Shown piece by piece: positions 8,302-53,106 of a stretch of DNA of 64,000 nucleotides. Positions within the stretch are counted from its first letter, which is position 1; every line of letters begins with the position of its first letter. Position numbers and translations under genes: made by a program. This stretch comes from Candidatus Methylumidiphilus alinenensis (GTDB lineage: Bacteria; Pseudomonadota; Gammaproteobacteria; Methylococcales; Methylococcaceae), in contig QJPH01000143.1 in assembly GCA_003242955.1 (NCBI GenBank), positions 15,679 through 79,678 on the forward strand, given 5' to 3'. The notes under the pieces are model-generated. The model worked only from the letters and a program-made list of their open reading frames with translations, was not told the DNA's origin and did no database searches.

Positions 8302-8475
8302 ATGACCGATAACACTGAAAACCTAGTGCTTGAAATTTTACGGCAACTGCGCGGCGACATGACTAGTCTTCGCAGTGAAGTGCGCGATGGCTTTAACCGG
8401 GTTGAGATTCGGCTCGGATATGTGGAACAATCCTTAGCTGGCAATTTGGCGGTATCGGCTTCTGACCGTGATTAG
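8302..8475 (+). CDS. Small hypothetical protein (57 aa)
   Basis: ATG 8302 starts MTDNTENLVLEILRQLRGDMTSLRSEV. The upstream part of the tracked ORF (from 8206) is MITE D sequence. It weakly resembles an untracked 46-aa ORF at 39260-39400. No function is recognisable. Confidence 0.3.
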   Translation: MTDNTENLVLEILRQLRGDMTSLRSEVRDGFNRVEIRLGYVEQSLAGNLAVSASDRD

Positions 8476-8534
8476 ATTCTCAGCCTGAAACAGCGCATTG
8501 AACGGATCGAAAGACGTTTGTGAATCTCTGCATT

Positions 8535-8624
8535 GTAGCCCGGATGGAGCCGCTTGCGGCGTAATCCGGGAGAACGTGGACACAACCCGGATTTGCGCTC
8601 ACCAAGCTGCTCCATCCGGGCTAC
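8535..8624. repeat. REP-like element, family G, copy 2
   Basis: GTAGCCCGGATGGAGCCGC ... GCTGCTCCATCCGGGCTAC. It accounts for the spurious N-terminal extension of the bioA ORF. Confidence 0.8.
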
Positions 8625-8649
8625 GGCCGTTCGCGTTTGCGTAACATCA

Positions 8650-9999: not shown

Positions 10000-10164
10000 G
10001 GTGATATCCAATAAAGAACATCCCATCCAAAGGCCAAGCTGGGGCTTGGCGCACCTGGAAGGAACGCCAAGCCCCAGCTTGGCAAGGTGATTTGCGGAGG
10101 AATTGTTCGTGATTTTCGTGGACAATTGATTTCGGTTTTGGTGGATTCATTATTGGAAATCACC
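10000..10164. mobile_element. MITE family D, 165-bp copy, inserted at the bioA stop codon
   Basis: TIRs are GGTGATATCCAATAA / TTATTGGAAATCACC. The TAA duplication sits at 9997-9999 (which is the bioA stop codon) and 10165-10167. Confidence 0.85.
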
Positions 10165-10193
10165 TAACCTAAAAACGGCAGTTGATTGGCCCA

Positions 10194-13394: not shown

Positions 13395-13453
13395 ACAGAA
13401 TCCTTATCAAGTTTAATTAAGCGATGCGCTTAGTTAAGGGAAAGCCGTTTCCC

Positions 13454-35842: not shown

Positions 35843-36007
35843 GGTGATTTCCAATAATGAATCCACCAAAACCGAAATGAATTGTCCACGAGAATCACAA
35901 ACACCTTCTTCGCAAATCACCTTGCCAAGCTGGAGCTTGGCGTTCCTTCTGGGAGCGCCAAGCACCAGCTTGGCCTTTGGATGGGATGTTCTTTATTGGA
36001 TATTACC
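35843..36007. mobile_element. MITE family D, 165-bp copy in inverted orientation
   Basis: TIRs are GGTGATTTCCAATAA / TTATTGGATATTACC. The TTA duplication lies at 35840-35842 and 36008-36010, which is the reverse complement of the TAA seen at the other two copies. Confidence 0.85.
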
Positions 36008-36122
36008 TTACCGTCCATGGCCTGGATTTCGGCATCCATGCCGAAATGACGGATTTTCCGGTTTGGCTGGACTTGTGTATAACGACGAACGCTGGAGCGT
36101 GGTAACGATAAAAACTAAAGAG

Positions 36123-37031
36123 ATGAACATGACAGCCAGACACAGAAAACTTATCAGTTTTGATTGGGCGATCAAGAAAATTCTTCGCAGCAAAGCTAAC
36201 TTTTGCGTGTTAGAAGGTTTTTTAAGCGAATTGCTGTTTGATGATATAACAATTAAAGAAATCCTTGAAACTGAGAGCAATAAAAATTCTAGGGAAGATA
36301 AATTCAATCGCCTGGATATTAAAGTAAAGAATTCAAAAGATGAAATAATAATCATTGAAATTCAATACGGTCGTGAACTGGATTATATGCAAAGAATGCT
36401 GTATGGCTCGGCAAAAGCAATTACTGAATATATTAAAGAATCTGACCCTTATTCAAAAATAGTCAAAATTATTTTAATAAACATATTATATTTTGATTTA
36501 GGCGAGGGCGATGATTATATTTATAAAGGCATAACTTCATTCATAGGTTTGCATAATCAAGGTCAATTAAAGCTGGATAGCAATCAAGCGAAGCTGTATA
36601 AAACGGATAAAATAGAGGCAATTTATCCTGAATATTATTTAATTAAGGTCAATAATTTTAACGATATTGCGAAAGACAGCTTGGATCAATGGATTTATTT
36701 TTTAAAAAATGAAGAGGTTAAGGATGATTTTAAAGCGAGGGGATTGGATAAAGCGAAAGAGATTTTGGATTATTTGAAATGCTCTGATGAAGAAAAAAGA
36801 GACTATGAATACTATAAAGAATCTTTGCATTATCAAGCCAGTATGTATGAATCGACCTATGTGGTTGGGAAAATAGATGGAAAAACAGAGGCTTTTATTT
36901 TATTATTAAAAAGTCGCTTTGGACAATTAACCACTGAGCAAATTGAAAAAATTAAATCGCTGGGTGATGAAAAACTTAACCAAGTTTTACAGAAACTTTG
37001 GACTGCGCAAAGTTTTCAGGAATTATTCTAA
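36123..37031 (+). CDS. Rpn-family recombination-promoting nuclease / putative transposase (PD-(D/E)XK)
   Basis: Very AT-rich. The start is set at ATG 36123 (MNMTARHRKLISFDWAIKKIL). The nuclease core is RLDIKVKNSKDEIIIIEIQYGRE. The first 93 codons of the tracked ORF (from 35844) are MITE read-through. Confidence 0.7.
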   Translation: MNMTARHRKLISFDWAIKKILRSKANFCVLEGFLSELLFDDITIKEILETESNKNSREDKFNRLDIKVKNSKDEIIIIEIQYGRELDYMQRMLYGSAKAITEYIKESDPYSKIVKIILINILYFDLGEGDDYIYKGITSFIGLHNQGQLKLDSNQAKLYKTDKIEAIYPEYYLIKVNNFNDIAKDSLDQWIYFLKNEEVKDDFKARGLDKAKEILDYLKCSDEEKRDYEYYKESLHYQASMYESTYVVGKIDGKTEAFILLLKSRFGQLTTEQIEKIKSLGDEKLNQVLQKLWTAQSFQELF

Positions 37032-39060: not shown

Positions 39061-39173
39061 GTCATTCCGGCAGGGATTGCCGGAATCCAGTCGCCATGGA
39101 GGGCAATCTAGGTTCACCTCCCTGTGTTCTGGATACCGGCGAACCCTCGCTTCGCTCTCCCTGCCGGTATGAC
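39061..39173. repeat. Hairpin-module repeat (family A interior without the outer TIRs)
   Basis: GTCATTCCGGCAGGGATTGCCGGAATCCAG...CCATGGAGGGC...CACCTCCCTGTGTTCTGGATACCGGC...CCCTGCCGGTATGAC closely matches 1901-2003. It lies about 200 bp beyond the 3' end of the AT-rich operon. Confidence 0.75.
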
Positions 39174-39386
39174 GCACATATTGGTTTAGCTGAGCAGTCT
39201 ACCTAATCAGGGAGTGCCTTGTGATACGCTAATATTTTACCACCCGAAAGGCTTCCGCCATGATCGACGACAACATAGACCACATCATCATAGAACACCT
39301 GCGGGCTATCCGCTCTTCGTTGGCGCGTCATGACCAGACGCAATACGGTTTACACCGATTGCGCCGCGATGACGAAACTAAAGAGG

Positions 39387-41213
39387 CTACGGTTTTATAA
39401 GTAGGCGAATATCGGGATTGGCGTACATCGTATAGAGAAGTCCTAGTGGATTTCGGTGACGCTTCAACAATTCCCACTTAGCATAATATATGGCTTCACC
39501 TAGCGGGTCTCCACGCAATAGGGATTGGTAAAATATTTTAGAGAATTCGCTGGCAAATCGGTCTGGAATTCTTTCTTCCGTGCCGATGTATCCTCGGTTG
39601 TTATTTGTATTCAAAAAGAACTTAGGAAATGGGTTAGGTGCAAATGAGTCATTATCAGTGCTACCACAAGCATTGAGAAAGATGATGGGTTTGGAAGATT
39701 TGGATTTATATTCTACTCGGTTATATACAAAATGCTTTTGAAGGTCGCCGATACTTGCTTGCAATGTTGATGAAAAACACAGTTTCGATTCGTTTGAGTC
39801 AGCCGGTTCACAAACTTGGCAATGACAGACGAAGTGTTGAATTTGATCGGGACGGCTTTGCATTTCCCCGTTGAAGCGCAGGAACGGATTTTGAAGATGT
39901 TTGGCTAGATTGCCGCGAAAAACACTAGCATCCAGATATTCGCCTGGCCAAGGCCCTTCCAGTTCGAGAAATTGATCATGATCCTTAAAAAACTCCCAAT
40001 TAGATTTAGCTACATGGAGTTCCTGATGGTGGAAATACTTTAGCGGCAGAACGGGGTCATTATCCAAAATCAAATCCTCACTAACATTAGCATCGGATAG
40101 TTCACGATATACCACGCTTGAAAAGCCAGGAAAGCGGCATAAAGCTAGTCGTAATTCGTCATAATTGGCAACGGGCAACCATTCAGTATTATTAAATAAT
40201 GGTAAAAACTCGATAGGTAAAATATCATTAGATTCACCTGACATAACAATCAATGAAGGGGAATTACTGTCATGATTCCATTTTGGACAGCATCTACGAA
40301 AAGTTTTGACTACCTCAGAATCTTGACCATTAAAAAGTATCGATAGGAGTTCGTTTCCAGCGCAATTCAATTCAGACAAGGCTTTGTTTAGTTGATTAAA
40401 TTCGACCTGTAGACCTTCATTTTTCCCTATTTTGATGAGCTTGCGCAAAGCTTTTCGCAAGTTTATTAATTTTGATTTTGTTTCTGAATCATCCAATCTA
40501 TAGGGTAGACAAATTTTTTGTTTGTGAGGTCCGGTAATTAATATTTCATGTAAACTACGCTCATCAACAATATTCGAAATTCTGAGTGTACTTACCATAC
40601 TAGCCCTTTCCGGCTTTTGATCGATGTTTTGATCAAGTTCCCGGTCATTTATGGATTGTGAGGTAAGGCAGGGTAAGTTGTTGACGGTTTTAATAATCTG
40701 CTGAAAGAGTTCTAGGGCGAACTTATCGCGTGTACTTTTTGTTCTGGCATCTTGAAATGTTTTCAGATTTTTATCGGTTTTTAAATGAAAGATTTGCTGC
40801 TTTTCTAGCCCTTTCAGGTCCATGATGCCATCGAACAGAATTGGTGTTAAGGCGACAGGTATTACCCGCTTCCCTGTGTTCGGCACTGCAATGTTAATGG
40901 GGACAAAGGCTGGTAATTCGTGGTTTTCAATATACTCGCTGCCTAAAAAATTCGGACTGACCAGTAACAGACCGAAATGGCAACCAGCGACAGCCGCCTG
41001 AATCTTTTCATGCCAATCTTCTCCAGCTATAATATCCTCATCATCCCAAGCTTCAAAATTGTACTCTTTAGAAATTTTAAGACATTGCTTTAGAGGTTTA
41101 AGTAATTTTTCTTTGAGTTCTTTATCTTCATGTGAATAGGATATGAAATAACGGATTACAGTTTTATTATTACCAGGCTCTTTTAATATAAAAGTTTTCG
41201 ATGATTCATTCAT
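39387..41213 (-). CDS. TIR domain - CHAT (caspase-like protease) domain fusion protein, 608 aa
   Basis: The TIR region runs from about aa 18 to 135 (VIRYFISYSHEDKELKEKL ... LLLVSPNFLGSEYIENHELPAF, candidate catalytic Glu at E96/E99). The CHAT-like C-terminal region (about aa 320-608) has ILPIEFLPLF, a His-box QIQHFVCHC (H460/H464) and a Cys-box PIIFLNACGS (C516). Assignments are by motif only. Confidence 0.7.
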   Translation of the reverse strand: MNESSKTFILKEPGNNKTVIRYFISYSHEDKELKEKLLKPLKQCLKISKEYNFEAWDDEDIIAGEDWHEKIQAAVAGCHFGLLLVSPNFLGSEYIENHELPAFVPINIAVPNTGKRVIPVALTPILFDGIMDLKGLEKQQIFHLKTDKNLKTFQDARTKSTRDKFALELFQQIIKTVNNLPCLTSQSINDRELDQNIDQKPERASMVSTLRISNIVDERSLHEILITGPHKQKICLPYRLDDSETKSKLINLRKALRKLIKIGKNEGLQVEFNQLNKALSELNCAGNELLSILFNGQDSEVVKTFRRCCPKWNHDSNSPSLIVMSGESNDILPIEFLPLFNNTEWLPVANYDELRLALCRFPGFSSVVYRELSDANVSEDLILDNDPVLPLKYFHHQELHVAKSNWEFFKDHDQFLELEGPWPGEYLDASVFRGNLAKHLQNPFLRFNGEMQSRPDQIQHFVCHCQVCEPADSNESKLCFSSTLQASIGDLQKHFVYNRVEYKSKSSKPIIFLNACGSTDNDSFAPNPFPKFFLNTNNNRGYIGTEERIPDRFASEFSKIFYQSLLRGDPLGEAIYYAKWELLKRHRNPLGLLYTMYANPDIRLLIKP

Positions 41214-41261
41214 ATAGGCTTACTGTTATTATTCTTTAAACAAACAGGCGGTCGATGACCA

Positions 41262-42812
41262 TTACAAGGCTAAGTTGACAGTCAGAGTTTGAATGAGTCG
41301 TGTACCCTGTAAAACTTGGACATAAATACGATGATTGGTAATAGAATCATCAATTGATTTCAAGGTGAAATTCAGTTCGGGGATTAAGTCATGGGCCTCT
41401 CTTTCCAGCTTTATTATCTGCCTACTAGTTGTGGCTTGTAATGTTTCAGAATACAAGAAAACAGTAAACTCAACCTCGGGAGTGTCTTGCCCGTCGCGAA
41501 CAACAATTTTCTCATAACAGGCTGAACTAGAATCAGATATATCAATGGGCTGCTCTTGAGTAAATTGAACCCGCATTGTCCATGTTTTCTCAGCACTATC
41601 AGCCTCCGAACCATTGTCAACAAAAATTTCTGCCGCAACATAGCCAGAGTAATTGCTTAGTTGAGGGCCTTGAAAATAGTCAGACAGTTGCTTTATTGAC
41701 TCTGCTTGTTGTTGAAGAATTTCGGTTAAGCGACTTTCAGAAATCATGCCTGTAGGTGTTTGACTGCCTGTATCCATGATGGCCTGTAGTTGCTTGGCAA
41801 GTTTAAATTGCTTTTCAAAGACATGCTGATAAATAGGATTTCTGATGGCACACACGCCTTGGTTATCCCGAATGCACCCTTGCAGGTAGAGGTCTCTGAT
41901 AATCTTGCTGCTTAATGAAAATGGCAGGTTAGCTCCATTGAGGATGGCTTCCAATACTTTGGTAAGGTTTGAATTCAGTTTATCAGTTCCGAAAAGATTA
42001 GATACCATGGTTTGAATATGGGTGGTACTGTCTAGGCCAACATTTTCTAAAAATTCAGAAAGTTTGTCTAACTGATCGTCTATTTCCTTGCTGTCGAGCT
42101 TGTAAAGATGATGGCAAACATATTGAACTAGATACGGATGACCTAAAGTGGTCTCATATATCTTGCTAATTTGAATTTCGGAGAATTTATCATCCGATAG
42201 ACGTGTAATGAGTCCTTGGGTTTCTGATGGAGTGAAATCTGGAAGATAGATTTTTTCTGCTATATTGAATGGAGAGATTAGGTAATTTTCTTCCATGGTC
42301 AAATCTCCTAAATCGGTTGAACCAGCAATTACAAATACATGTTTGTGCTTACTTTTGTCAACGAAACTTTCCATATAATACGCTCGTATGTGTCGCAATA
42401 ATTCAGCTGCAACTTCTCTGTTGGGGCATATTTCATCGATAAGGAATATTATTGGTTTGTTATTATGTAATAACCTAAAATAATCAATTATCCTATCTGG
42501 TGTAGTGCTGTCATAGTGATATATAAGGTGTTTGGTTTTACTCCAGAACTCATGTGTGACTTCTTTAATATCATAAAAACCACATGCTTCTAAATTGATA
42601 TGAATATATATATATTTATCAGTAAACTCACTATCTAGCGCATTAAGTAAAGTGGTTTTCCCTGTTTGCCTAGAAGCCATTATGGATATGCATGTCTTAG
42701 AATTAATATCATCATAAATCTCTTTAACTATTTTTTCTCTAGTTACCGATTTATCTTTTAATATTGGGCTTGTATACACAAATGGATTGGTGGTATTTTC
42801 TAAAGTATTCAT
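41262..42812 (-). CDS. AAA-like (ORC/Cdc6-type, Pfam AAA_35-like) P-loop ATPase with an uncharacterised C-terminal domain, 516 aa
   Basis: Walker A is IMASRQTGKTTLLNAL, Walker B is PIIFLIDEI, and the motif TTLGHPYLVQYVCHHL follows. The last ~170 aa (from about SNYSGYVAAEIFVDNG) look beta-rich with no recognisable motif. There is an 8-nt gap to the upstream gene. Confidence 0.65.
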   Translation of the reverse strand: MNTLENTTNPFVYTSPILKDKSVTREKIVKEIYDDINSKTCISIMASRQTGKTTLLNALDSEFTDKYIYIHINLEACGFYDIKEVTHEFWSKTKHLIYHYDSTTPDRIIDYFRLLHNNKPIIFLIDEICPNREVAAELLRHIRAYYMESFVDKSKHKHVFVIAGSTDLGDLTMEENYLISPFNIAEKIYLPDFTPSETQGLITRLSDDKFSEIQISKIYETTLGHPYLVQYVCHHLYKLDSKEIDDQLDKLSEFLENVGLDSTTHIQTMVSNLFGTDKLNSNLTKVLEAILNGANLPFSLSSKIIRDLYLQGCIRDNQGVCAIRNPIYQHVFEKQFKLAKQLQAIMDTGSQTPTGMISESRLTEILQQQAESIKQLSDYFQGPQLSNYSGYVAAEIFVDNGSEADSAEKTWTMRVQFTQEQPIDISDSSSACYEKIVVRDGQDTPEVEFTVFLYSETLQATTSRQIIKLEREAHDLIPELNFTLKSIDDSITNHRIYVQVLQGTRLIQTLTVNLAL

Positions 42813-42820
42813 AACGACAC

Positions 42821-45800
42821 CTATTTAGGGTATATTTCACTGATTCGTTCGAGTAAACTGACAGCCGTCAACTCAACTTCGATGTGTTTTCCAAGAATGA
42901 AAGGCAGGTCAGGCAGGACAAAACTATACAGAATGCTTTCCGGTTCGTGCTTGAGGATAGTTGCTAAAACTAATTTCTTCATCAGATTAGCGATTTCTTT
43001 ATCACTCAAATTAACATCATATATTTCTAGCAAACGTTGTAATTCAAAAGGTGTAAACTTATTGCCAAGTTCATATTTTTCCCTTTCATTAGCATATTTA
43101 CGAGTTATTTTACTGTAAGCTATGCGGTCAATAATAATTTTACCTAGTTTCTTATCAAAACAAGCCATCATTAAATAAAGTAATAGCTTGGATTGATCAT
43201 CCAAATTATACAAATAAACTTCAATCATATGTTCGCAAAATGTTGTAGAATTAATCACTTTGTCAATGTCATCGCGACTAATTTCCCTCACTTTGCGTAT
43301 CTTGTCAATACGAATTATTTTCGCGCAGCAAAACTGAATGAAGTTGGGATAACAAGCTGTTTTCTCGGTGATATATCTTATGTTATTTTTGTCAATAGTG
43401 AGAATGTTCTTAAAAGGTTCATCAATCAGTGCCATGGCATCTTTTTCAGCCAAAGATCCGAGTTCTAGTTTTTCCAAAAAATTAAACAACGGCGATTGGA
43501 TGTCATGCATCCGGAAGTAGAGTTCGCGGTAGCCGGCTACAACAATCTTGACTGAGGCTTCATTAATCAGTGCCCTTAAGGTTCTTGAAAATGTCTCACC
43601 CGTTGGCAGCAGATCATCCAATTCGTCGAGGAAAAGTACCAGCTTGCATTTATGGCTTTTACAGTAATCATCTACCTGGGTGATAAAATCGGCTATGGCA
43701 TTAAATGCAGTGGTTATTTCCAATTTTCGAAACAACCCCTTCCCCCATTCCAAAATATCGGAACCGTACGGGCTACAATCTAGATAGACAGTTTTGAAAT
43801 GTTTGCGTTTGTCGATCTCATCTTTGATACGCATCAATAAAGAAGTCTTGCCTATGCGTCTAGGGCCAATGATGGCATAACATTTTTTGTTGGGTTGCAG
43901 GATAGAATTTATAATAATTTGGGTTTCATTTTCTCGACCATAGAACATTTCCCTGACCGGGCCGGCAATTTGGAAAGGGGACAAGGCAACGAGATTGACC
44001 TGTCCAACCAGCAAAGACAGGAGTTCCTCATGGGGATTGTTGGCAAGAAGAATATTCTTTAAATCCTGGTAATCTAGCACGGCAGTCGAAAAGCTTAGTG
44101 ATTCATTTTTCAGCGTCGTTGTTATAAATTCTATCCTCTCTGGTGCAATAACTAGGACAATCCTCCAATTAGTCGTGGATTTAATCCAATGATTTACCGT
44201 GCTGTAGTCAGTGCCTTTCAACACAGTAACAAGTATGCAATCAAAACCATGAAATTTGATAGATGGAATTTTAATTTCAAAAACTTCCAAATGTGGTTGT
44301 AAGTTTAGAGGAACGGGTACGCGTTCTTGGAATAATACCTTGACGGTGGCGCAGAGTATTTCCAGATGGTTTTGCCTGAGCAATTCTTTTTGTTTCTGAT
44401 TGGCTTCATATTTTGAATTAAGTGCAATCGAAAGGTGGACAAGATTCGCCCACTGTTCTGGGTTTATCAAAAGAAAATCAGTTACCCAAGGTAGTTGTTT
44501 TTCTTTATTCAAGGCTACATCAATTTTACATACATCAATAAGCTTGATTGCTGCAATCAGCTCTTGCCGATGTTCAAGTGCTGTTTTGAAGACATCTTGG
44601 TGAGTTGAAATCCAGTGGGCATAACCGCTATCTTGCAACAAGTAATGGCTTTCTTTTTGTTCAACGTGGCTAACGATTAGTTTTAGAGCCTCCAAAGATT
44701 GGACACCCAGCAAGACATTGTCTTTTGGAAAAAAATGCTTGATTCTATGCAGCTTATCGTGAATGCCGGTAAGTTCAGCCCCGCCGAGGGACAGGGCTAT
44801 CAAGACCATTTTCTCCGCCAACGTATGTTTAGCCCATAATAGAGCATATCCCTTTTCCTGATTGCAAATAGTTTCCAACTCTTTAAGGTAATTTGGACTG
44901 ACCACTCGGTAGCGGTTGACAAGCCCCTGAGCGAGTGCAACGATAATTTCTTGACCCGTTCCATTATTGGCTAAACTATGCACTGCCGTAGGCATATCGG
45001 CTAAAAATAGTTCTTTGGTTTTTTCGCCTTCTAGGGATAGGAATATCAAACTACGTTGCCGTGTGCCTATGATAATTTCTTGGCTACCCTTATAAGTCTT
45101 GCCTAAAGCTATCGAAATTAGCTGCCTGTCTATGTTGTTAATGATGCAAAATCTCGACTTCTCGCCATCAGCATGGACACTGTAAATCGAATCAGGGGTT
45201 AATACATAAAAATGCGGATTGCCTTGCTCGTTTTCAATGCAGACCCAATCCAGCACATTGACGGAATCGCCTAGCTCCAACCATGGCTGCTTGAATGGGT
45301 CAGCCTGTGTTTCAGGTTGATTTAGAAAATCGTTGATATTTTGCATACGATAGATGCAACCTGTCACCGTGATGACATAAAAAGTTATTTTATCCTTAGC
45401 AACTTTTAATTCCATCTTGATAGGAATGGCTGGCAACGTAAACTCCCTACGCTGTACATTGCCAGCCTGGATAACGATGTCATTATTCACTAGCCCGCAT
45501 GCCAAATAATCTTGGCCTTGGTGGTGGAGTGCCGTTAAACAGCAAATTGCCTTGCTATAACTGGCAAAGGGTTTATCCATGTCAAGATAATCAAAAGAGT
45601 CAAGCTTAAAAACGTCTGAACCGTTTCCTATGAAATATTGTTTTTTGCTACCATGGATAAGGACGATGTGTATTTCTGTATCATTAAAATGTTTTTTATC
45701 AATTCTGCCCTTGTCTATCCTATAAAGATCACCTTCTGAACTTGCTAGTATAATCCTGTTGCCACCATCAATGGATGAGATGAACTCGATATTCTCTAGT

Positions 45801-47479
45801 CTGAGGTGTGATTCCAACAAATCCATCCCAATCAATTTTAAATTGTCTAATTGTTTGTAGGCATCGGGAAATAAACCTTCCGAAGATAATCGTTTTATGT
45901 CCTCACTACGCCGGATCGGTAAATCCTTCCAACGAATTTTCTCTTCTGTGAATTCTTTGAATTGACCTAGAAAATCATTACCACTGCCAATAACATTATT
46001 GATTTTTTCTAATTCAAAGCATATTTGCTCACAAGTAGGTAAGTTTTGATATTTTTTATATAATCTTTCAATAAATTCAAATGTGTAACGTATAAGAATT
46101 TTTTCATTTTGATATTTTTTTAATAAATAACCCAATTTTTGTAAAATTTGTAAATTAACGTCATAAACCTGCTGTTCTTCAATAGATTGTAAAAACTCCA
46201 CAACTTGATGGCAATCCATTTCCCGCTCAAGGACATCCATTCCATATCGGGCTACTGCGGGATATTTTGACTCACTGAACCAATTTAGAATCTCTTTGTT
46301 TCCATGACTTTTTTTCAAATCATTAAATGCTTGTGCAATTTTTTTATTGATGGTGGAACCTATATATATCTTGAAAACTTGCAATTTGCCATTGGCCAAC
46401 CCTGCAATAACCCGCTTCTTATCCAACTGCCTAATATTACCAGCCCACAACGCGGTTACCCGATGTTCGGTGGGATATTCCCATTTGATACGCAACTCAC
46501 GTCTGTCAGGATCAACGGCAAATACATAGATGCGGTTGCTGGCACCTCCAACTAATATTTCTAGTATGCCATCGTTGTCAATATCGTCACAATATAAGGA
46601 ATGAAACTTATCGGCACATTTGATCGAGTATTTTAATTGCGTCGTGTGTAGATCATAGATGTCCAGTTTGCCATTGGAAGCACAAGCAATAATGCTTTCG
46701 CTACCTTCATTATCGGGATCGGCTACTTGGACGCAAATATATAAGCTCGAATGGGCAAAACTTCGAGGTGTCATATTTATATACCCATGCGGATTGATGT
46801 CGTATACGATAATCCCTCCCCCATGCATAATACCTACCAGATGGGAGTCTTGTATAGTGTTTGCATCAGTAGGTGAAGGCAAGTCGTCAATTTGAAAGTG
46901 TTGGATATTTTTTAGAGTGTCTAGTTCTTGATCCGGTTTGTTAGGTGAAAAAGGGCTAAAGCGATAAATTTTATTATTCGATGCCGCCAAATATAGGTGT
47001 GAATCCTTGTAAATTATACAATAGATTTCCAAATCATCTTCTTGTTGTCTTGGTATACCAATGATTGAGCGTAAGTCAGCTGAAAGTTTATTACCTTGTC
47101 TCGAAAAATGATAAATGGCAGGCGGTGCATTCTTTTTATAAGCAACGAGCATGGCGGAATGTGTACTTGCCCCCCTGCCATATTTAAAAAAACGTAATTC
47201 TTGGAAGCCACTAGGATTGTCAAGTTGTACAATTTTTTGCAGGTTCTCACCACAGGAGTATATCTTGCATCTACCATATGTAGTGATAATGTTCACCTCT
47301 TTGGTGGTGTTGTTATCGATATCGACGGCTTCAATGGCAATAACACCCCCATGACAGTGAATTTCATCAATCAGATCAAGTTTGTGTTCTTTAACAAGTA
47401 AAAACTTCTGGATCGCTTTAAAATACTCCTGATGAGATAAATCTTCTTTCCCTGCACCAACTAAATTATGCTGTATCAT
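42821..47479 (-). CDS. Giant (~1552 aa) protein: N-terminal FG-GAP-like beta-propeller, helical linker, second propeller-like region, C-terminal P-loop ATPase plus helical/wHTH-like tail
   Basis: An FG-GAP-like blade CDDIDNDGILEILVGGASNRIYVF lies at ~46560-46600. Repeated strand patterns occur (ACASNGKLDIYDL, AGLANGKLQVFKI, LASSEGDLYRID). The ATPase lead-in is SPFQIAGPVREMFYGRENE, Walker A is YAIIGPRRIGKTSLL (Lys codon 43847-43849), and Walker B is LVLFLDELDD. I prefer ATG 47479, preceded by GGAGG, over the tracked TTG at 47494. Confidence 0.65.
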   Translation of the reverse strand: MIQHNLVGAGKEDLSHQEYFKAIQKFLLVKEHKLDLIDEIHCHGGVIAIEAVDIDNNTTKEVNIITTYGRCKIYSCGENLQKIVQLDNPSGFQELRFFKYGRGASTHSAMLVAYKKNAPPAIYHFSRQGNKLSADLRSIIGIPRQQEDDLEIYCIIYKDSHLYLAASNNKIYRFSPFSPNKPDQELDTLKNIQHFQIDDLPSPTDANTIQDSHLVGIMHGGGIIVYDINPHGYINMTPRSFAHSSLYICVQVADPDNEGSESIIACASNGKLDIYDLHTTQLKYSIKCADKFHSLYCDDIDNDGILEILVGGASNRIYVFAVDPDRRELRIKWEYPTEHRVTALWAGNIRQLDKKRVIAGLANGKLQVFKIYIGSTINKKIAQAFNDLKKSHGNKEILNWFSESKYPAVARYGMDVLEREMDCHQVVEFLQSIEEQQVYDVNLQILQKLGYLLKKYQNEKILIRYTFEFIERLYKKYQNLPTCEQICFELEKINNVIGSGNDFLGQFKEFTEEKIRWKDLPIRRSEDIKRLSSEGLFPDAYKQLDNLKLIGMDLLESHLRLENIEFISSIDGGNRIILASSEGDLYRIDKGRIDKKHFNDTEIHIVLIHGSKKQYFIGNGSDVFKLDSFDYLDMDKPFASYSKAICCLTALHHQGQDYLACGLVNNDIVIQAGNVQRREFTLPAIPIKMELKVAKDKITFYVITVTGCIYRMQNINDFLNQPETQADPFKQPWLELGDSVNVLDWVCIENEQGNPHFYVLTPDSIYSVHADGEKSRFCIINNIDRQLISIALGKTYKGSQEIIIGTRQRSLIFLSLEGEKTKELFLADMPTAVHSLANNGTGQEIIVALAQGLVNRYRVVSPNYLKELETICNQEKGYALLWAKHTLAEKMVLIALSLGGAELTGIHDKLHRIKHFFPKDNVLLGVQSLEALKLIVSHVEQKESHYLLQDSGYAHWISTHQDVFKTALEHRQELIAAIKLIDVCKIDVALNKEKQLPWVTDFLLINPEQWANLVHLSIALNSKYEANQKQKELLRQNHLEILCATVKVLFQERVPVPLNLQPHLEVFEIKIPSIKFHGFDCILVTVLKGTDYSTVNHWIKSTTNWRIVLVIAPERIEFITTTLKNESLSFSTAVLDYQDLKNILLANNPHEELLSLLVGQVNLVALSPFQIAGPVREMFYGRENETQIIINSILQPNKKCYAIIGPRRIGKTSLLMRIKDEIDKRKHFKTVYLDCSPYGSDILEWGKGLFRKLEITTAFNAIADFITQVDDYCKSHKCKLVLFLDELDDLLPTGETFSRTLRALINEASVKIVVAGYRELYFRMHDIQSPLFNFLEKLELGSLAEKDAMALIDEPFKNILTIDKNNIRYITEKTACYPNFIQFCCAKIIRIDKIRKVREISRDDIDKVINSTTFCEHMIEVYLYNLDDQSKLLLYLMMACFDKKLGKIIIDRIAYSKITRKYANEREKYELGNKFTPFELQRLLEIYDVNLSDKEIANLMKKLVLATILKHEPESILYSFVLPDLPFILGKHIEVELTAVSLLERISEIYPK

Positions 47480-47487
47480 GCGTGATG

Positions 47488-47492
47488 CCTCC
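47488..47492 (-). promoter_or_regulatory. Shine-Dalgarno (GGAGG) for the giant ATPase gene
   Basis: GGAGG on the minus strand lies 8 nt upstream of ATG 47479, inside the 21-nt gap after the GH57-like gene stop. Confidence 0.55.
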
Positions 47493-47500
47493 AAGGTTTA

Positions 47501-48859
47501 TTAGGTGTTGTTGATATTCCGAAGCTCATGGTAATCAATCGCTTGTTTGATGGAGTTTAACCAAGGCAATATTCTTTTCTTAAAATCGGAGTCTGTATTC
47601 AATTTTGCCAGGGATTTATCCAGTTCAGAATTGAGTTCTTCTTGTGTGCGCTGGTGTATCGCCCACATCAGTTGCGTGTAAATCTCTTGACCTGCTTTCA
47701 GTAGCTCATAATTATCCATTAGGGAAGCAGTCAAATACAGTGTCCGCATTTGTAAATCAATGCCCTCATAGATTCGCTCTGGATTCCAAAACCAGATCGA
47801 AGCCCAAAAGTATTGGGTTGAATAAAATGCCCGGTCCAACAAATCGCGTAGTTTATTTAATCCAGAGTGTTGTTCATCACCCTCGATATTGAAATTAATG
47901 TTTGAATTAGCATCCCATATCAGATCGGTCAGCTTCCAAAGGTTTTCATGGATAGGATTGTCTTTGGATTTCCACAAGGGGTAGTAATCTCCCCTTTTAT
48001 AGTTATCCGGCTGAGTTGCCCAAGAGCAGGGTGGAAAATACTCAAAGATTTGTCCAACTTCTTTGGGTTTTTCAATCTTGCTTAGACCTTTGATGTTGAG
48101 CAGATCGGACACCAAGCATAATTCTACAGAATCTGATTTCGATAATTTACACAGCATGTCCCTCAGAAAAGTCTCCTGATAATATTTAACATGATGACCA
48201 AAGGTTTCCCCGGATATGGCAATGATAGTGTAGCAGTCTTGCTGTTGCAGTTGAATTTCAGCCTCCATTTGTCGAACAAACTCCCGACCCGTCAGATGAT
48301 GCCCATTTTTAATACGATTGCTCCATAGTTCACTCCTCATGAACACTGCAATGTCGTTGACATGGTAAATTTCGTGTTGAGGAATCCTTATCCCATTTAT
48401 TTCCATCACGCAATCATCAATAATCGTCCATTGAAAGCCCATCTCTTGATATAAAGGTAAAAGTTTGTCGTGATAGCACATTTCAGGAGAAAAAATACCC
48501 GATGTTGTAGTAACTCCGAAATGTTCGGACTTTAAATCCTTATCTAATGCAATTTGTCGTTTGACTTCTTGGTCTGGTAACAATGGAAAGATGGGATGGT
48601 AAGCCCCGGTATGGATCATTTCTATTTTGCCGAACTTAACCGCCTGTTTAAGCCCTTCTATGACTTTGTCTTTACGGAATTCGATTAATAAGCTGGCTAA
48701 AGAATTGGCAAGGGAAACGGTGAATTTGGCATTGGGTTTGGAATTGAATAGTTCCACTAGGGGTTGGTAACACTCACGGGTCACCTCGTCGATGACTTTG
48801 TCGTTTTGTGATGAAGGTTGAAATAAATCCAGTAAAAACGCCACATACATTTTAGCCAT
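47501..48859 (-). CDS. GH57-like protein, paralogue 2 (probably non-catalytic), 452 aa
   Basis: GH57-type regions are present: GKIEMIHTGAYHPIFPLL, GIFSPEMCY and YSTQYFWASIW. However, region I is DLFQP (His replaced by Asp) and region IV is IIAISGETFGHH (the acid/base Asp replaced by Ser, codon checked in the DNA). TAATG gives a 1-nt overlap with paralogue 1. Confidence 0.65.
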   Translation of the reverse strand: MAKMYVAFLLDLFQPSSQNDKVIDEVTRECYQPLVELFNSKPNAKFTVSLANSLASLLIEFRKDKVIEGLKQAVKFGKIEMIHTGAYHPIFPLLPDQEVKRQIALDKDLKSEHFGVTTTSGIFSPEMCYHDKLLPLYQEMGFQWTIIDDCVMEINGIRIPQHEIYHVNDIAVFMRSELWSNRIKNGHHLTGREFVRQMEAEIQLQQQDCYTIIAISGETFGHHVKYYQETFLRDMLCKLSKSDSVELCLVSDLLNIKGLSKIEKPKEVGQIFEYFPPCSWATQPDNYKRGDYYPLWKSKDNPIHENLWKLTDLIWDANSNINFNIEGDEQHSGLNKLRDLLDRAFYSTQYFWASIWFWNPERIYEGIDLQMRTLYLTASLMDNYELLKAGQEIYTQLMWAIHQRTQEELNSELDKSLAKLNTDSDFKKRILPWLNSIKQAIDYHELRNINNT

Positions 48860-50049
48860 TAGCGGTTCTCCAAAAGATGTCTTTTATTCTCAATTGCGGT
48901 CACCAATTCCCTAAATAATTTCTCGCCTTTGCCAATATCATCATCATTACCGGTCATCACCCAAGCCTTTTGCAGAATGCGCATCAAATTGAATGCCCCC
49001 TTGTAAATTTCCTGTGAATTCTCAGGTTTGTCGAATTTCCAATAGTTGGCCCACCAGAACTGACAAGAGTAAAGGGCTTTGTCCATATCCCCATTCAAGT
49101 TTTTATCGTTCAAGCGTCGCACATTGTCCAGTACAAGGTCACAAAATTGCCATTGCAAGGTATGGATGGGATTTTTATGGCTTTTCCACCAAGAAAAATA
49201 ATCCCGGTTGTCAATGTCGGCACGATCTGTAGACCAGGAGCCGGGCGGGATAAACTGGGTTACCTGCTTGAAATGATGAAAGATTTCTGCCAAGTGGGCG
49301 GTTCGTATCTCATCCTTATGCTGGTCAAAAGCAGCAAACATTTCACTAAGAAACACTTCGCTATATTTATGTTGATGATGACCAAAAGTTTCCCCATCCA
49401 GCGCGATGATCAGATAGCCGTCTTGGTCCCCCATCCATTGTTTCATGGAAGCCAGCAACTCTTCGACAAATTCCTGCCCATGGACCCAGTTGTTATCGTT
49501 ATTGGCAAAGCGGTTGGACCAATGGTTGCTACGCAACAACACCCCTAATTCATCTTGGCAGTAAACGGTGTCAAACGGAACTTCGATGCCATAATAGTCC
49601 AGATTGCCATCGTCGGCGATAGTCCACTGATAACCGAGGGATTTTAGCTGGGAAGCCAGATTGCCGGTGAAGGCCAATTCAGGAGAAAAGACTCCTTGTG
49701 GATTGAATTCAGCTGTCAATAAACGCTGATTGCCTTCATGGTTTAGCCGTATCTGCCGTTCCACTTCTTCATAAGGTATCAATGGGAAGATAGGGTGGTA
49801 AGCCCCGGTTTCGGTCAACTCCAAAATTCCTTCGTCATGCGCGGCGCGGATATTCTCAAGTATCTGCGGAAATGGATCGTGGAGTAATTCGACAAGACTG
49901 TAGTTGATGTTCAAGGTGAATTTCAAGCCGCTGGCTTCCCTGATTTTACGCGTCAGCGGTTCGTAGCTCTCCCGTACAATTTTAGCCAGCATATCAAATT
50001 CTTGTACAGGTGGCTGGTAGATGTGAAACAGAAAGTTGACAAATTTCAT
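48859..50049 (-). CDS. GH57-like glycoside hydrolase, paralogue 1 (catalytic motifs intact), 396 aa
   Basis: The start is set at ATG 50049 (MKFVNFLFHIYQPP). Regions are HIYQP, GILELTETGAYHPIFPLI, GVFSPELAF (nucleophile Glu), IIALDGETFGHH (acid/base Asp) and YSCQFWWANYW. The 55 upstream codons of the tracked ORF are MITE read-through. Confidence 0.7.
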   Translation of the reverse strand: MKFVNFLFHIYQPPVQEFDMLAKIVRESYEPLTRKIREASGLKFTLNINYSLVELLHDPFPQILENIRAAHDEGILELTETGAYHPIFPLIPYEEVERQIRLNHEGNQRLLTAEFNPQGVFSPELAFTGNLASQLKSLGYQWTIADDGNLDYYGIEVPFDTVYCQDELGVLLRSNHWSNRFANNDNNWVHGQEFVEELLASMKQWMGDQDGYLIIALDGETFGHHQHKYSEVFLSEMFAAFDQHKDEIRTAHLAEIFHHFKQVTQFIPPGSWSTDRADIDNRDYFSWWKSHKNPIHTLQWQFCDLVLDNVRRLNDKNLNGDMDKALYSCQFWWANYWKFDKPENSQEIYKGAFNLMRILQKAWVMTGNDDDIGKGEKLFRELVTAIENKRHLLENR

Positions 50050-50056
50050 CAATAAT

Positions 50057-50061
50057 CTCCT
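50057..50061 (-). promoter_or_regulatory. Shine-Dalgarno (AGGAG) for the first gene of the AT-rich operon
   Basis: The minus strand reads AAAGGAGATTATTGATG, with AGGAG 7 nt upstream of ATG 50049. Confidence 0.55.
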
Positions 50062-50117
50062 TTGACTGCAATAGCTAGGTTGCCTTGGGAACAGGCTTGA
50101 TCCAGTGATTTTTACGC

Positions 50118-50196
50118 CGTCATTACAAAAGGCTTGTCGTCGCTTGAGGTTTGCCATCCCTGGACGCTGGATTCCTGCATCCATGCCGGAATGACG
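50118..50196. repeat. Degenerate family C hairpin-module element just upstream of the operon
   Basis: CGTCATTAC...CTGGATTCCTGCATCCATGCCGGAATGACG. It is related to the elements at 50363-50503 and 58498-58636. Confidence 0.6.
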
Positions 50197-50362
50197 GGCC
50201 CGGCGTAATTTCAAGCATTGCCGAGTTTGTGTGCATCACGTTTAATCGTACCCACCTTTCGCAAAAAATCCACCGGACGTACAATAGGAATATTACCATA
50301 ACTGCCAAGTGTCAACAGATCATGGTCGCCGGACACAGCAATTCTCATTTTGGCTAGAACGC

Positions 50363-50503
50363 CGTCATTCCGGCAGGGATTGCCGGAATCCAGATGCCAT
50401 GGACGGCAACTCGACGCTCGCAAGTGTTTGATTCAGGGTGTGTGCCAGCCCGCAGTTTCACATCCCTGTGGACTGGATTCCGGCAATCCCTGCCGGAATG
50501 ACG
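50363..50503. mobile_element. MITE family C (141 bp) with ~30-bp terminal inverted repeats
   Basis: CGTCATTCCGGCAGGGATTGCCGGAATCCAG ... CTGGATTCCGGCAATCCCTGCCGGAATGACG. A homologous copy lies at 58498-58636. Confidence 0.8.
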
Positions 50504-50725: not shown

Positions 50726-53106
50726 TTGAACAATCAAAATTATTTTGCCACGGCCCCATTGGGTTTCGAACTTTTGCTCGCCGACGAATTGCGTGGTTTG
50801 GGTGCCGATGAGGTTAAAGACGTCCGGGCGGGGGTTTCTTTCTCCGCCGACATCGAAACCGCCTACCGGGTTGTTTGTGGTCGCGGTTAGCCAATCGCGT
50901 GTTGTTAAAGCTGGCAAGCTTTCCCGCCGCCACTCCCGAGGAACTATACACCGAAGTCAGTGAAATCGACTGGGCGGTTTTGATGCTGCCTGAAGCAACG
51001 TTGGCCGTGGATTTCACCAGTTCCCGATCCCGCATCACCCACACTCAATTTGGCGCGCAAAAGGTCAAGGATGCCATCGTCGATCAGTTCCGCGAACTGT
51101 GCGGTATCCGCCCTTCGGTGCGTTTGGACCGTCCAGACATTCGGGTGAATGTTTATTTGGACAAGGACATTGCCAGCGTTGCCCTGGATATTTCCGGCGA
51201 GAGCCTGCACAAGCGCGGTTATCGGTTGGATGGCGGAATTGCCCCGCTGAAGGAAAACCTAGCCGCCGCCGTTCTGCTGCGAGCGGGTTGGCCTGATATT
51301 GCTAAAACGGGAGGCGAATTGGTCGATCCCATGTGTGGTTCTGGAACCCTGCTGATCGAAGCCGCTTGGATGTCTGCTGATATTGCGCCAGGGCTGATGC
51401 GGGATTATTTTGGCTTTCAGGGCTGGAAGCATCATCGCGCCGACTTGTGGGAATCTCTGTTAGAGGAAGCCAAAACCCGCCGCGAAGCCGGTTTGCGGAA
51501 GCTGCCGACGATCACCGGCTATGATTTTGACCGCCATGCCGTCCATGCCGCATTGGACAATATCGAGCGGGCCGGATTGCACGGATTGATCCATGTCGAA
51601 AAGCAAGAGGTCATAAACGCACGGCCTCGCAAATACGGCTATACTTCTGAATTAAGCCGTCATTCCGGCATGGATCGCCGGAATCCAGATTGCAGGGATG
51701 CCACCAATCCATGCCGGAACGACGATGGAACCCTTAATTCAACAGCAGAGACCTTAGACTCCTTCCCTTTTATAAAGGAAAAAAAGGGGGATTTTCAACC
51801 TACCGGACTGGTCGTGGTCAACCCCCCCTATGGCGAAAGGCTAGGCGAGGCGGATGAACTGGCCGGTTTGTATAGCGAACTGGGTGGTGTCCTAAGAACC
51901 CATTTCCAAGCTTGGAAAGCCAGCGTATTGACCGGCAACCCGGAACTGGCGTTCAAACTGGGGATTCGTGCGAGGAAATTCTACAAACTCTACAACGGGG
52001 CGATAGAATGCAAATTGTTCAATTTCGATATCGAACCAGAGCGATTTTTTACGCCCCACGAGGATGAAACCGGGCTTTCTGAGGAAGCCCGCAAATCCAA
52101 GCAACTGATGCGCCAAGCCCAAAGTCTGGCAAACAAGGGGGAAACCGGTTCAGGGGCGGAAATGTTTGCCAATCGTTTGCGTAAAAATGCAAAAAACTTG
52201 GGGCGGTGGGCTAGGCAAAACAACGTGTCTTGTTACCGGCTCTATGATGCCGACCTTCCCGAATATGCGGTGGCGGTGGATTTGTACCAAGGCGAGAAAA
52301 CTTGGCTGCATGTGCAGGAATACCAGGCACCGGCCATCATTGACCCCGCCAAGGCCGAGCACCGTTTGGTGGAAGCCTTGTCAGTCATGCCACAGGTGTT
52401 GGAGATTCCACAAGGACAACTATTCCTGAAAATCCGCCAGCGCCAGAGGGGCTCCGACCAATATGAGAAGCAGGCCGACGTAGGCCGATTCCATCAGGTG
52501 GACGAAGGCGTTTGCCGTTTTTGGGTCAACTTTGAAGACTATCTGGACACCGGCCTGTTTCTGGACCACCGCCCGACCCGGCTGATGATCCAGCGATTGG
52601 CCAAGGACAAGCATTTCCTCAACCTCTTTGCCTATACCGGAACGGCCACCGTCCATGCGGCTTTGGGCGGTGCCCGTTCGACGACCAGTGTGGACATGTC
52701 GCATACCTATATGGAATGGGCGCGGCGGAACTTGGAACTGAACGGCATCAAAGGTTATCATCACGAACTGATCCAGGCCGATTGCCTGGCTTGGCTGGAT
52801 GCCCAGGTAGATAAGGGTGGCAACCGGTTTGATTTGATATTCCTAGACCCGCCCACCTTCTCCAATTCCAAGCGCATGGCAGGTGCTTTTGACGCACAGC
52901 GGGATCATGTGGAAATCTTACGCAAAACCGCCAGATTGCTATCGCCCGGCGGCCTGTTAATCTTTTCCACCAATTTCCGTAAATTCAAACTCGATTATGA
53001 TGCTTTGCAAGATTTTGTGGTCGAGGACATCAGCGGCAAGACCATCCCCAAGGATTTTGAACGCAACCCGAGAATCCATTATTGTTGGACGATCAGAAAT
53101 AAATAG
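50726..53106 (+). CDS. rlmL: Bifunctional 23S rRNA (G2445-N2)/(G2069-N7) methyltransferase RlmKL, with an apparent 1-nt frameshift near 50873-50877 and an in-frame MITE-derived insert
   Basis: The tracked ORF 50875-53106 begins LWSRLANRVLL and carries NPPYGERL, YRLYDADLPEY and DPPTFSNSKR. The expected N-terminus (TTG 50726: MNNQNYFATAPLGFELLLADELRGLGADEVKDVRAGVSFSADIETAYRVV) lies in another frame and stops at TAG 50888-50890. Confidence 0.85.
51649..51740. mobile_element. Internally deleted family A MITE derivative (92 nt) inside the rlmKL reading frame
   Basis: GAATTAAGCCGTCATTCCGGCATGGATCGCCGGAATCCAGATTGCAGGGATGCCACCAATCCATGCCGGAACGAC...CTTAATTC. Its first ~65 nt are near-identical to 17066-17130. 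It is translated as ELSRHSGMDRRNPDCRDATNPCRNDDGTLNS. Confidence 0.85.

Follow-up and report, generated by a model that had tools for sequence, protein, structure and literature searches.

A rare, conserved operon combining a GH57 protein pair, two STAND-like ATPases and an exchangeable fifth gene is a candidate biological-conflict system

We analyzed a five-gene operon at positions 39387-50049 of a 64,000-nt stretch, here called the window, of contig QJPH01000143.1 from the lake methanotroph Candidatus Methylumidiphilus alinenensis (assembly GCA_003242955.1). In the open reading frame (ORF) analysis its five minus-strand genes lie head to tail and tightly packed, and they encode two proteins of glycoside hydrolase family 57 (GH57-A and GH57-B, genes g1 and g2), a giant protein carrying propellers and an ATPase (g3), an AAA_35 ATPase (g4) and a TIR-CHAT protein (g5). 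On balance, we favor the view that this operon is a rare, conserved biological-conflict system of the STAND type (signal transduction ATPases with numerous domains), most likely acting in anti-phage defense or abortive infection. This view is taken because synteny is conserved and the genes are tightly coupled, because the ATPase, TIR and CHAT motifs are present and the GH57 pair is split into an apparently active and an apparently inactive member, because effector variability is a hallmark of conflict systems, and because the surroundings of the operon copies have a mobile and defensive character, with miniature inverted-repeat transposable elements (MITEs), low GC content, an integrase, transposases, an antitoxin and a Kiwa system.

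Conservation and foreign composition of the operon

A first-pass annotation of this DNA had proposed a sensor/switch plus effector module and had made that proposal hinge on the genes lying together in other genomes. Such co-localization was found, GH57-A, GH57-B and the giant being arranged in this order at ten more distinct loci (L001/L002, L003, L004, L005, L006, L010, L011, L012, L014 and L015), in which the giant is as little as 27% identical to that of the window. These contexts were reached through five full-length divergent giant homologues (P0004-P0008), four further GH57-B homologues and a scan of JGI metagenomes, which added a single locus (L010); the comparison covers about a dozen loci in total, almost all of them on metagenome contigs. 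The three genes stood in this order in every giant context that could be retrieved, and of the six GH57-B homologues placed in their genomic context, five sit directly 5′ of a giant, L013 being the exception. The AAA_35 gene directly follows the giant in eight of the ten further loci; in L012 it lies on the convergent strand, fused to HD-CE. Identity to the window proteins amounts to 50-59% for GH57-A, 47-59% for GH57-B, 27-39% for the giant and 29-36% for the AAA_35 protein. Intergenic distances across the loci range from -17 to +28 nt, and the GH57-B stop and giant start codons overlap by 4 nt in 6/9 loci. The modular reading gains support from this co-localization and from the domain assignments given below; its defensive role we infer from domain logic and genomic context, as we do the part played by the GH57 pair.

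Giants of this family are very rare, forming about 20 clusters in a set of 1.84 billion representatives. A word-indexed search that took the giant as query returned eight relatives, and a HMMER search of its residues 1-1180 against the 1.84 billion cluster representatives returned 20 proteins below 1e-30, about 15 of them full-length (1511-1563 aa), while GH57-B had about 45 relatives at an identity of at least 45%. When 185,579 GTDB species-representative genomes were scanned with the giant alignment, the result was one weak propeller match in a metagenome-assembled genome of the Rikenellaceae, and the gene of the window itself was also missed. Because the system was not found in these genomes, it has been missed by defense-island surveys of cultured genomes. 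Scans of IMG/VR with the giant and GH57 alignments, and a tblastn search of the PLSDB plasmids with GH57-B, returned nothing.

The local anatomy described in the first-pass annotation was reproduced. Reanalysis of the ORFs gave the same 1-nt stop/start overlap between g1 and g2 and the same gaps of 21, 8 and 48 nt between g2 and g3, g3 and g4, and g4 and g5, respectively; the good Shine-Dalgarno sites on the first and third genes are AAGGAG and GGAGG, each 7 nt 5′ of an ATG, and the site of g5 is weak. The block, said to be more AT-rich than its flanks, has a GC content of 0.39 vs 0.51 and 0.53, and NCBIfam confirmed the flanking genes as yihY and rlmKL. Operon GC likewise lies below that of both flanks in every locus, too-short flanks being ignored, with the 555-nt left flank of L003 as the sole exception. 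The hairpin-module MITEs proposed as borders were also found: a MITE-like 30-nt hairpin core, GTCATTCCGGCAGGGATTGCCGGAATCCAG, occurs in exact copies at 39061, 50364 and 50473, on both sides of the operon, and in six copies (three exact and three diverged) in the window, where none is expected by chance. We conclude that the five-gene block is a horizontally acquired island. At other loci the neighbors include an integrase, transposases and an antitoxin. Directly 3′ of the L001/L002 copy (L001 11022-12488) lie a gene for a 114-aa Pepco-domain protein and a phage-type integrase, followed by ParA, HTH and IS240 transposase genes; because of the Pepco gene, the integrase, ParA and the IS240 transposase, this copy is placed on an integrative element.

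Domains of the five proteins

Both proteins at the head of the operon match the Pfam GH57 model (PF03065) far above its cut-off of 21.2 bits (GH57-A, 3e-28, 99.2 bits; GH57-B, 4e-32, 112.2 bits), and they are 33% identical to each other. Conserved sequence regions (CSRs) 1-4 are recognizable in GH57-A, which keeps the CSR1 His, the CSR2 Glu and the CSR3 nucleophile Glu; its Glu124 aligns with the nucleophile of the T. litoralis 4-alpha-glucanotransferase 1k1w, whose catalytic residues we take to be Glu123 and Asp214. The motifs ALDGETFGHH and GxFxPE are invariant in 11/11 GH57-A orthologues, all of which keep the nucleophile Glu and the acid/base Asp. Having both the CSR3 Glu and the CSR4 Asp that mark catalytic GH57 proteins, GH57-A is predicted to be an active retaining glycosidase or transglycosylase. 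By contrast, GH57-B retains its Glu residues, the nucleophile Glu included, but has neither the CSR4 Asp nor the CSR1 His of an active GH57: the residue before GETFG is S, A, T, P, G or C and never D in all homologues with a locatable motif (about 30 of about 45); among the homologues in which CSR1 can be located, all but one have D, E or N in place of its His. Because GH57-A keeps the Glu and the Asp whereas GH57-B never has the Asp, the two appear to form an enzyme/pseudoenzyme pair born of duplication, with GH57-B as a putative conserved GH57-fold pseudoenzyme that probably binds substrate only, without catalysis. In one protein (P0205, 1956 aa), a GH57-B that is 52% identical to that of the window and has Pro in place of the Asp continues in frame into the N-terminus of a full-length giant homologue, which as a Rosetta-stone arrangement hints at physical contact between the two. 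A match of GH57-A to the PADLOC family PDC-M21C was rejected, being weak (E 1e-3) and concerning 4/12 members. P0137-P0140, which make up the nearest outgroup clade (about 34% and 31% identical), have the look of a single active GH57. Its member P0138, which has the HIYQP motif, is encoded at L016 9619-12916 as a single GH57 with DUF5752 and a TreT-like GT1/GT4 glycosyltransferase, and a metabolic cluster of this type is the probable source of the recruited GH57.

In the giant, Pfam detects a BBS7/BBS2/ITFG2/FG-GAP-type propeller and an AAA_22/AAA_35/ATPase_2 region, and its sequence matches in the Protein Data Bank are ITFG2, Cdc6 and SSO1545. We modeled its C-terminal 693 aa (865-1557, numbered from a TTG) and the AAA_35 protein with AlphaFold2, using shallow alignments (7 and 12 sequences), and obtained mean confidence scores (pLDDT) of 75.8 and 73, respectively. 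The model of the giant contains a winged helix, a helical stretch, a beta-beta-beta-alpha-beta-alpha-beta domain, an AAA+ domain with its lid and a terminal winged helix; Foldseek ranks archaeal and eukaryotic Orc1/Cdc6 and SSO1545 highest for it, ahead of plant nucleotide-binding leucine-rich repeat receptors (NLRs) and MalT (rank 48). When STAND clades were scored, the giant of the window matched AAA_22, AAA_35 and ATPase_2 only, with Orc/Cdc6 structures outranking NLRs, and some orthologous giants exceeded the nSTAND1 cut-off of 27.1 bits (P0207, 30.7 bits; P0208, 36.5 bits). Walker A and B are invariant in seven orthologues, and the P-loop ATPase that the first-pass annotation had recognized here is borne out by Pfam and Foldseek alike. 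Of the two propellers it had proposed, the first stands by its Pfam matches. The second is undetectable in the giant of the window by itself, as it is when region 1 is compared with region 2 by hhalign, and the call is drawn solely from matches in homologues P0205-P0209, in several of which the corresponding region (595-912) matches the second propeller of RSE1, BBS7, BBS2_Mid, IFT122 and CDC20. Since the hhalign comparison of propellers 1 and 2 was not significant, we do not claim an internal duplication. A PD-(D/E)xK nuclease was considered for the alpha/beta domain and is not claimed: although the strand order fits, the conserved D-x-K sits in a helix that follows strand 5, and the first Asp is not invariant.

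The order of domains in the giant, propeller first and ATPase last, which the first-pass annotation knew from no named system, is not unique. Dozens of uncharacterized proteins of about 1550-1670 aa (P0009, P0222-P0241) share it; these broader giants have two strong FG-GAP/BBS-like propellers and a C-terminal ATPase of the ATPase_2/AAA_22 type and, in most cases, HEAT repeats between propellers and ATPase. In two loci (L007 8311-14965 and L008 3718-10372), P0009 is encoded divergently from an nSTAND2 ATPase and a zeta-toxin/AAA_33 gene, and GH57 is absent.

For g4, the Pfam match (AAA_35, 3e-19), Walker motifs that are invariant among orthologues and the modeled fold all agree with its earlier description as an AAA-like P-loop ATPase. 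The Foldseek matches of its model begin with PABY2304 and SSO1545 and continue with Avs4, Avs3, ORC/Cdc6, NLR resistosomes and EfAvs5. Both ATPases of the operon combine Walker A and B with a helical lid and a winged helix, as STAND and Orc/Cdc6 proteins do, at Foldseek E values of 1e-9 to 1e-5, and STAND NTPases have been placed within the Cdc6/Orc clade (PMC8195603). Because of the Foldseek matches and the invariant Walker motifs, we assign the giant and the AAA_35 protein, on their modeled folds, to the Orc/Cdc6-STAND class of putative switches. The C-terminal beta-sandwich of the AAA_35 protein is missing in L006 and L011, exactly the two loci with a fifth-position effector other than CHAT, and in the L012 fusion. 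Because it is missing where CHAT is missing, co-variation in these few loci suggests that the beta-sandwich is a docking or substrate module for the CHAT protein.

The TIR-CHAT fusion described for g5 was confirmed. Its TIR_2 match (2e-13, 51.5 bits) exceeds the 28-bit cut-off, and Glu99 aligns with the catalytic Glu of the 'YEL' motif of AbTIR, so that by fold and Glu the domain is a predicted member of the TIR NADase family. The CHAT match (PF12770) is, at 20.4 bits, under the 24-bit Pfam cut-off, and the assignment comes by way of the orthologues and the dyad of His464 and Cys516: residues ~200-604 are orthologous (identity about 28-34%) to the CHAT-only fifth genes of L001, L003, L014 and L015, of which the L001 protein reaches 43.4 bits for CHAT and the L015 protein also matches Peptidase_C25. 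The CHAT Cys (FLNAC) is invariant, and the His is present in 4/5 g5-type proteins. Thus the TIR, CHAT and P-loop assignments all held in profile and fold searches.

The fifth position is variable. It is occupied by TIR-CHAT in the window, by CHAT-only proteins in L001/L002, L003, L014 and L015, by a 212-aa membrane protein in L006 and by a 231-aa membrane protein with a faint DUF4231-like region in L011; L012 has no fifth gene, its HD-CE being fused to AAA_35. The fifth gene of L004 is truncated where its contig stops; it is probably CHAT-only, to judge by 100 residues that match (E 5e-7) the conserved region upstream of the CHAT domain. Because the orthologous effectors are CHAT-only proteins, membrane proteins or HD-CE, the TIR domain appears, from these comparisons, to be a lineage-specific addition outside the conserved core. 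The earlier designation of TIR and CHAT as the effectors therefore applies to the protein of the window, in which both domains are present; TIR is absent from the orthologous effectors.

Start codons, borders and neighbors of the island

Features of the operon and its borders are collected in the table. Longer TTG-initiated ORFs exist for g1 (451 aa) and g3 (1557 aa, from 47494), and we rejected both starts because the Shine-Dalgarno sites precede the ATGs by 7 nt; the g3 extension runs through its site. The g1 extension (50050-50214, minus strand, 55 codons), 5′ of the ATG with its Shine-Dalgarno site, is read-through of a MITE (RRARHSGMDAGIQRPG...) and is included in the 451-aa GenBank form PZN84817.1. 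GenBank (DM484_02310-02330) annotates the five genes just as hypothetical, GH57 N-terminal domain, AAA+ or TIR-domain proteins. Promoter and terminator scans performed no better than on shuffled sequence.

Positions of features in the window (~, approximate boundary)
Feature	Position	Strand	Remark
g1, GH57-A	50049-48859	-	396 aa
g1, CSR1 HIYQP	50011-50025	-	motif
g1, predicted nucleophile Glu124	within 49678-49695	-	aligned to 1k1w
g1, predicted acid/base Asp218 in ALDGETFG	49381-49404	-	motif
g2, GH57-B	48859-47501	-	452 aa
g2, CSR1, His replaced by Asp	48815-48829	-	motif
g2, AISGETFG, acid/base Asp replaced by Ser	48197-48220	-	motif
g3, giant	47479-42821	-	1552 aa from ATG
g3, propeller 1, FG-GAP/BBS7/ITFG2-like	~46355-47377	-
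g3, helical region	~45830-46354	-
g3, putative propeller 2	~44900-45817	-	via homologue matches
g3, winged helix-turn-helix and helices	~44345-44899	-
g3, alpha/beta domain	~44000-44335	-
g3, Orc/Cdc6-STAND-like AAA+ with lid and C-terminal winged helix	~42824-43972	-
g3, Walker A GPRRIGKTS	43841-43867	-
g3, Walker B FLDELD	43616-43633	-
g4, AAA_35 ATPase	42812-41262	-	516 aa
g4, nucleotide-binding, helical and winged-helix module	~41778-42755	-
g4, Walker A SRQTGKTT	42651-42674	-
g4, Walker B LIDEI	42429-42443	-
g4, coiled-coil linker	41658-41777	-
g4, C-terminal beta-sandwich	41265-41651	-	lower-confidence part of model
g5, TIR-CHAT	41213-39387	-	608 aa
g5, TIR domain	40644-41165	-	Glu99 within 40914-40931
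g5, conserved middle domain	39894-40625	-	~230 aa, N-terminal to CHAT
g5, CHAT caspase-fold domain	39390-39893	-	His464 in 39819-39836; Cys516 in 39660-39680
MITE core, downstream border of island	39061-39090	+	exact copy
MITE cores, upstream border, inverted pair	50364-50393; 50473-50502	+; -	exact copies
Diverged MITE copy	~50170-50200		source of spurious g1 5′ extension

Another copy of the MITE hairpin, with two mismatches, lies at 51659-51688, in frame within the rlmKL ORF (50875-53106), where it reads ...SRHSGMDRRNPDCRDATNPCRNDDG..., just 5′ of the NPPY methyltransferase motif; this ORF of 743 aa matches the 704-position RlmKL model in two stretches. On the other side of the island, a plus-strand gene of low GC content (0.33) at 35844-37031 encodes an Rpn-family recombination-promoting nuclease/putative transposase, a second foreign insertion that yihY alone separates from the operon. 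Between g5 and the downstream MITE, a plus-strand ORF of 46 aa (MIDDNIDHIIIEHLRAIRSS...) at 39260-39400 is convergent with g5 and shares its last 14 nt.

Proposed mechanism, rival explanations and known systems

In the mechanism that we propose, the GH57 pair would form the front end of the system, probably docked on the N-terminus of the giant, and would produce, trim or sample a glycoside, either a glycan or a glycosylated molecule of the invader. The giant, with its propellers, winged helix and AAA+ ATPase, would act as sensor and switch and read the glycoside signal, and the AAA_35 protein would be the adaptor ATPase, whose C-terminal beta-sandwich would serve to carry or dock the effector. 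ATP-dependent assembly of the two ATPases would then turn on the effector. The killing module would come from the fifth gene and be interchangeable; that of the window would join a TIR NADase to a CHAT caspase-like protease, so that NAD+ depletion by TIR and proteolysis by CHAT would halt growth or kill the infected cell. A more specific version, which we offer tentatively and consider possible rather than probable, makes a GH57-A/B heterodimer an integral part of the immune receptor: the dead GH57-B would hold a sugar-bearing molecule and the live GH57-A would cleave or transglycosylate it, and product or occupancy would gate the two-ATPase assembly, upon which the interchangeable death effectors would fire. 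Candidates for such a molecule are an invader glycan, glycosylated phage DNA or protein, and a messenger derived from host alpha-glucan.

Several observations weigh against a conflict system of this kind. Contigs of the same species population mostly carry a frameshifted giant, split into a 1031-aa piece (26 contigs) and a 520-aa piece (47 contigs), the intact 1552-aa form being that of the window and PZN84815.1; the system may therefore often be inactive or dispensable. The frameshift, at about 44380-44420 in an A-rich tract after ...HLSIAL, may reflect a genuine allele, inactivating or phase-variable, or else a homopolymer assembly error. Likewise, the P0205 fusion is a single predicted protein that may be a frameshift or assembly artefact, the CHAT His is absent in the L015 homologue, no PADLOC 2.0 system model fits the operon, and taxonomy is known for two loci alone (Methylumidiphilus and Candidatus Kentrum). 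The context of the outgroup GH57 is purely metabolic, so that a metabolic link is possible for the operon pair as well. Finally, in L013 the GH57-A/B pair occurs without the giant (5317-14893), beside a convergent gene for a 1207-aa Metallophos-NACHT-FGE-sulfatase protein. The pair can therefore exist apart from this ATPase and may serve more than one STAND partner; the locus is a defense island, with Kiwa (KwaA/KwaB) 3 kb away, upstream of the GH57 pair.

Considering that GH57 is an alpha-glucan-active family, that GH57-A retains its catalytic residues and that the closest outgroup GH57 is metabolic, the operon might instead encode a metabolic-status switch. The GH57 pair would turn endogenous alpha-glucan (glycogen or malto-oligosaccharide) into a ligand of the giant, and carbon-storage or stress signals would lead to proteolysis or to developmental or altruistic death with no invader involved. 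The model for such a switch is MalT of E. coli, a STAND-class transcription activator gated by maltotriose, an alpha-glucan-derived ligand made by carbohydrate enzymes, and to our knowledge the sole precedent for a sugar-gated STAND protein. MalT shares with the giant a STAND-class ATPase and stands among its fold matches at the rank given above, the parallel in the sugar ligand being hypothetical; it differs in having a transcriptional output and no propellers, whereas the outputs of the operon family are TIR, CHAT, HD-CE or membrane effectors. The L004 copy adjoins housekeeping genes, which fits a physiological role, but the patchy and extremely rare distribution, the foreign composition and the mobile and defense neighbors do not; effector swapping is typical of conflict systems and not of physiological regulators, and CSR5 of GH57-A, in an alignment read by eye, departs from the canonical alpha-glucan-binding motif. 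We regard this explanation as unlikely. We also consider it quite unlikely that the role of conserved effector or countermeasure falls to the GH57 pair, which might strip sugars from invader DNA or protein or destroy a host glycan that phages need, with the giant and the AAA_35 protein as its regulators and the fifth gene as an auxiliary killer. The GH57 genes are indeed the most conserved (47-59% vs 27-39% for the giant), the pair is retained in L013 alongside another STAND protein, the winged helix-turn-helix and Orc/Cdc6-like modules of the giant are potentially DNA-binding, and sugar-modifying GT4 domains have been proposed as effectors acting on invader molecules (PMC8195603). However, the fifth position already holds self-sufficient suicide effectors (TIR, CHAT, HD-CE and membrane proteins), a dead GH57 partner fits binding or sensing better than degradation, and no DNA-sugar glycosidase is evidenced in GH57.

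That the operon is no single system, and that a metabolic GH57 pair and an independent STAND-effector module merely travel together in mobile islands, we judge improbable. The pair without a giant in L013 and the related double-propeller giants without GH57 in L007 and L008 speak for such an accident, but the GH57-A, GH57-B, giant order kept in all ten further loci despite the divergence of the giants, the frequent 4-nt stop/start overlaps and the in-frame fusion P0205 argue against it, as does the clade-specific nature of the GH57-B pseudoenzyme, directly 5′ of a giant in all but one of the contexts looked up. Hardly credible, finally, is a role of the ATPases as transposition regulators of the TniB/TnsC/MuB kind, with the operon as cargo or machinery of a mobile element. 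Pfam TniB reaches 47.5 bits in homologue P0209, a protein of the window weakly matches the PADLOC TnsC model, and MITEs lie on both flanks; such TniB similarity is expected, however, given the kinship of these domains with STAND and Orc/Cdc6 ATPases (PMC8195603). Tn7/Tn5053 modules carry a transposase, whereas no TniA, TnsB or rve is found inside any operon copy; the flanking insertion sequences vary by locus, and TIR, CHAT and HD-CE play no part in transposition.

The conflict system that we favor belongs to a general kind that is already known, in which a STAND-like ATPase is combined with TIR or caspase-like effectors and effectors are swapped. It had been expected to correspond to no named system and to yield isolated domain matches at most, and PADLOC 2.0 (2023) gave just that: weak matches to ThsB TIR, TnsC, PDC-S27, PDC-S01, mad8 and PDC-M21C (E 1e-3). 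None of the five operon proteins is covered by an NCBIfam model, and a literature search found no description of GH57 with defense, anti-phage, STAND or CHAT, nor of AAA_35 with CHAT. Within the scope of PADLOC 2.0, NCBIfam and the literature searched, the obligatory GH57 enzyme/pseudoenzyme pair, the split of the ATPases over two genes and the degenerate double-propeller giant are undescribed. Like Avs1-5 and other NLR-like systems, the operon combines Orc/Cdc6-STAND ATPases that have intact Walker motifs with a large repeat sensor and swapped death effectors (TIR, protease, nuclease), and the structures of Avs4, Avs3 and EfAvs5 are matched by the g4 model. Avs proteins, however, unite effector, ATPase and TPR-like sensor in one polypeptide, whereas here sensor, ATPases and effector are spread over three genes, the propellers lie N-terminal to the ATPase and the GH57 pair is obligatory; no PADLOC Avs model matches any of the five proteins.

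Individual components likewise recall other systems. The g5 TIR matches the ThsB-type model of PADLOC (4e-10) and keeps the catalytic Glu, as in Thoeris, but neither the operon nor the neighboring ORFs encode a ThsA (SIR2/Macro-SLOG) domain, and within the operon family TIR is confined to the Methylumidiphilus lineage. With Craspase (type III-E CRISPR) and the CHAT proteases of gasdermin systems, g5 shares a caspase-fold CHAT domain with a His/Cys dyad as the output of a putative immune sensor; gRAMP/Cas7-11, Csx30 and gasdermin are absent from the operon and the neighboring ORFs (no dedicated search for a CRISPR array was made), and the operon CHAT has an N-terminal domain of its own (about 230 aa) and appears to co-vary with the AAA_35 beta-sandwich. 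GH57-A has the (beta/alpha)7 barrel and the catalytic Glu and Asp of canonical GH57 enzymes (1k1w, branching enzymes, amylopullulanases), but the operon GH57s are short (about 400 aa), lack the usual C-terminal domains, are always duplicated as A and B, and share their operons with genes for STAND-like ATPases and death effectors, not with glycogen genes; the metabolic clade nearest to them is about 34% identical.

Also close are mobile two-STAND operons with sugar-modifying GT4 domains and TIR or caspase effectors, which have been predicted to be counter-invader systems (PMC8195603). The nSTAND2 operons and STAND-GT4 fusions of that work (Kaur et al. 2021, PMC8195603) share with the present operon their mobility, two STAND-type NTPases, a conflict role predicted computationally, and the link of a carbohydrate-active enzyme to STAND modules and TIR/caspase effectors. 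They differ in that here a GH57 enzyme/pseudoenzyme pair is encoded separately in place of a fused GT4, and the ATPases match AAA_35, ATPase_2 and nSTAND1, not nSTAND2; GH57 is not mentioned in either of the Aravind-group papers on NTPase conflict systems that were searched (one of them PMC8195603).

Bacterial, plant and animal immunity share the theme of STAND/NLR ATPases that act through TIR, caspase-like or pore-forming effectors, and little is understood of what the bacterial receptors sense or how upstream enzymes shape the signal. The operon family is a clean case of modular effector exchange, with an adaptor domain and the effector apparently co-varying, and its hosts are uncultivated methanotrophs and sulfur-oxidizing symbionts. 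If its GH57 role were confirmed, the pair would be a categorically new component for immunity, and if the proposed gating is true, this would be the first bacterial immune system with a sensing step that depends on glycoside-bond chemistry. Should the link prove functional, carbohydrate chemistry would join bacterial immune sensing, in the form of a testable enzyme-pseudoenzyme-receptor model.

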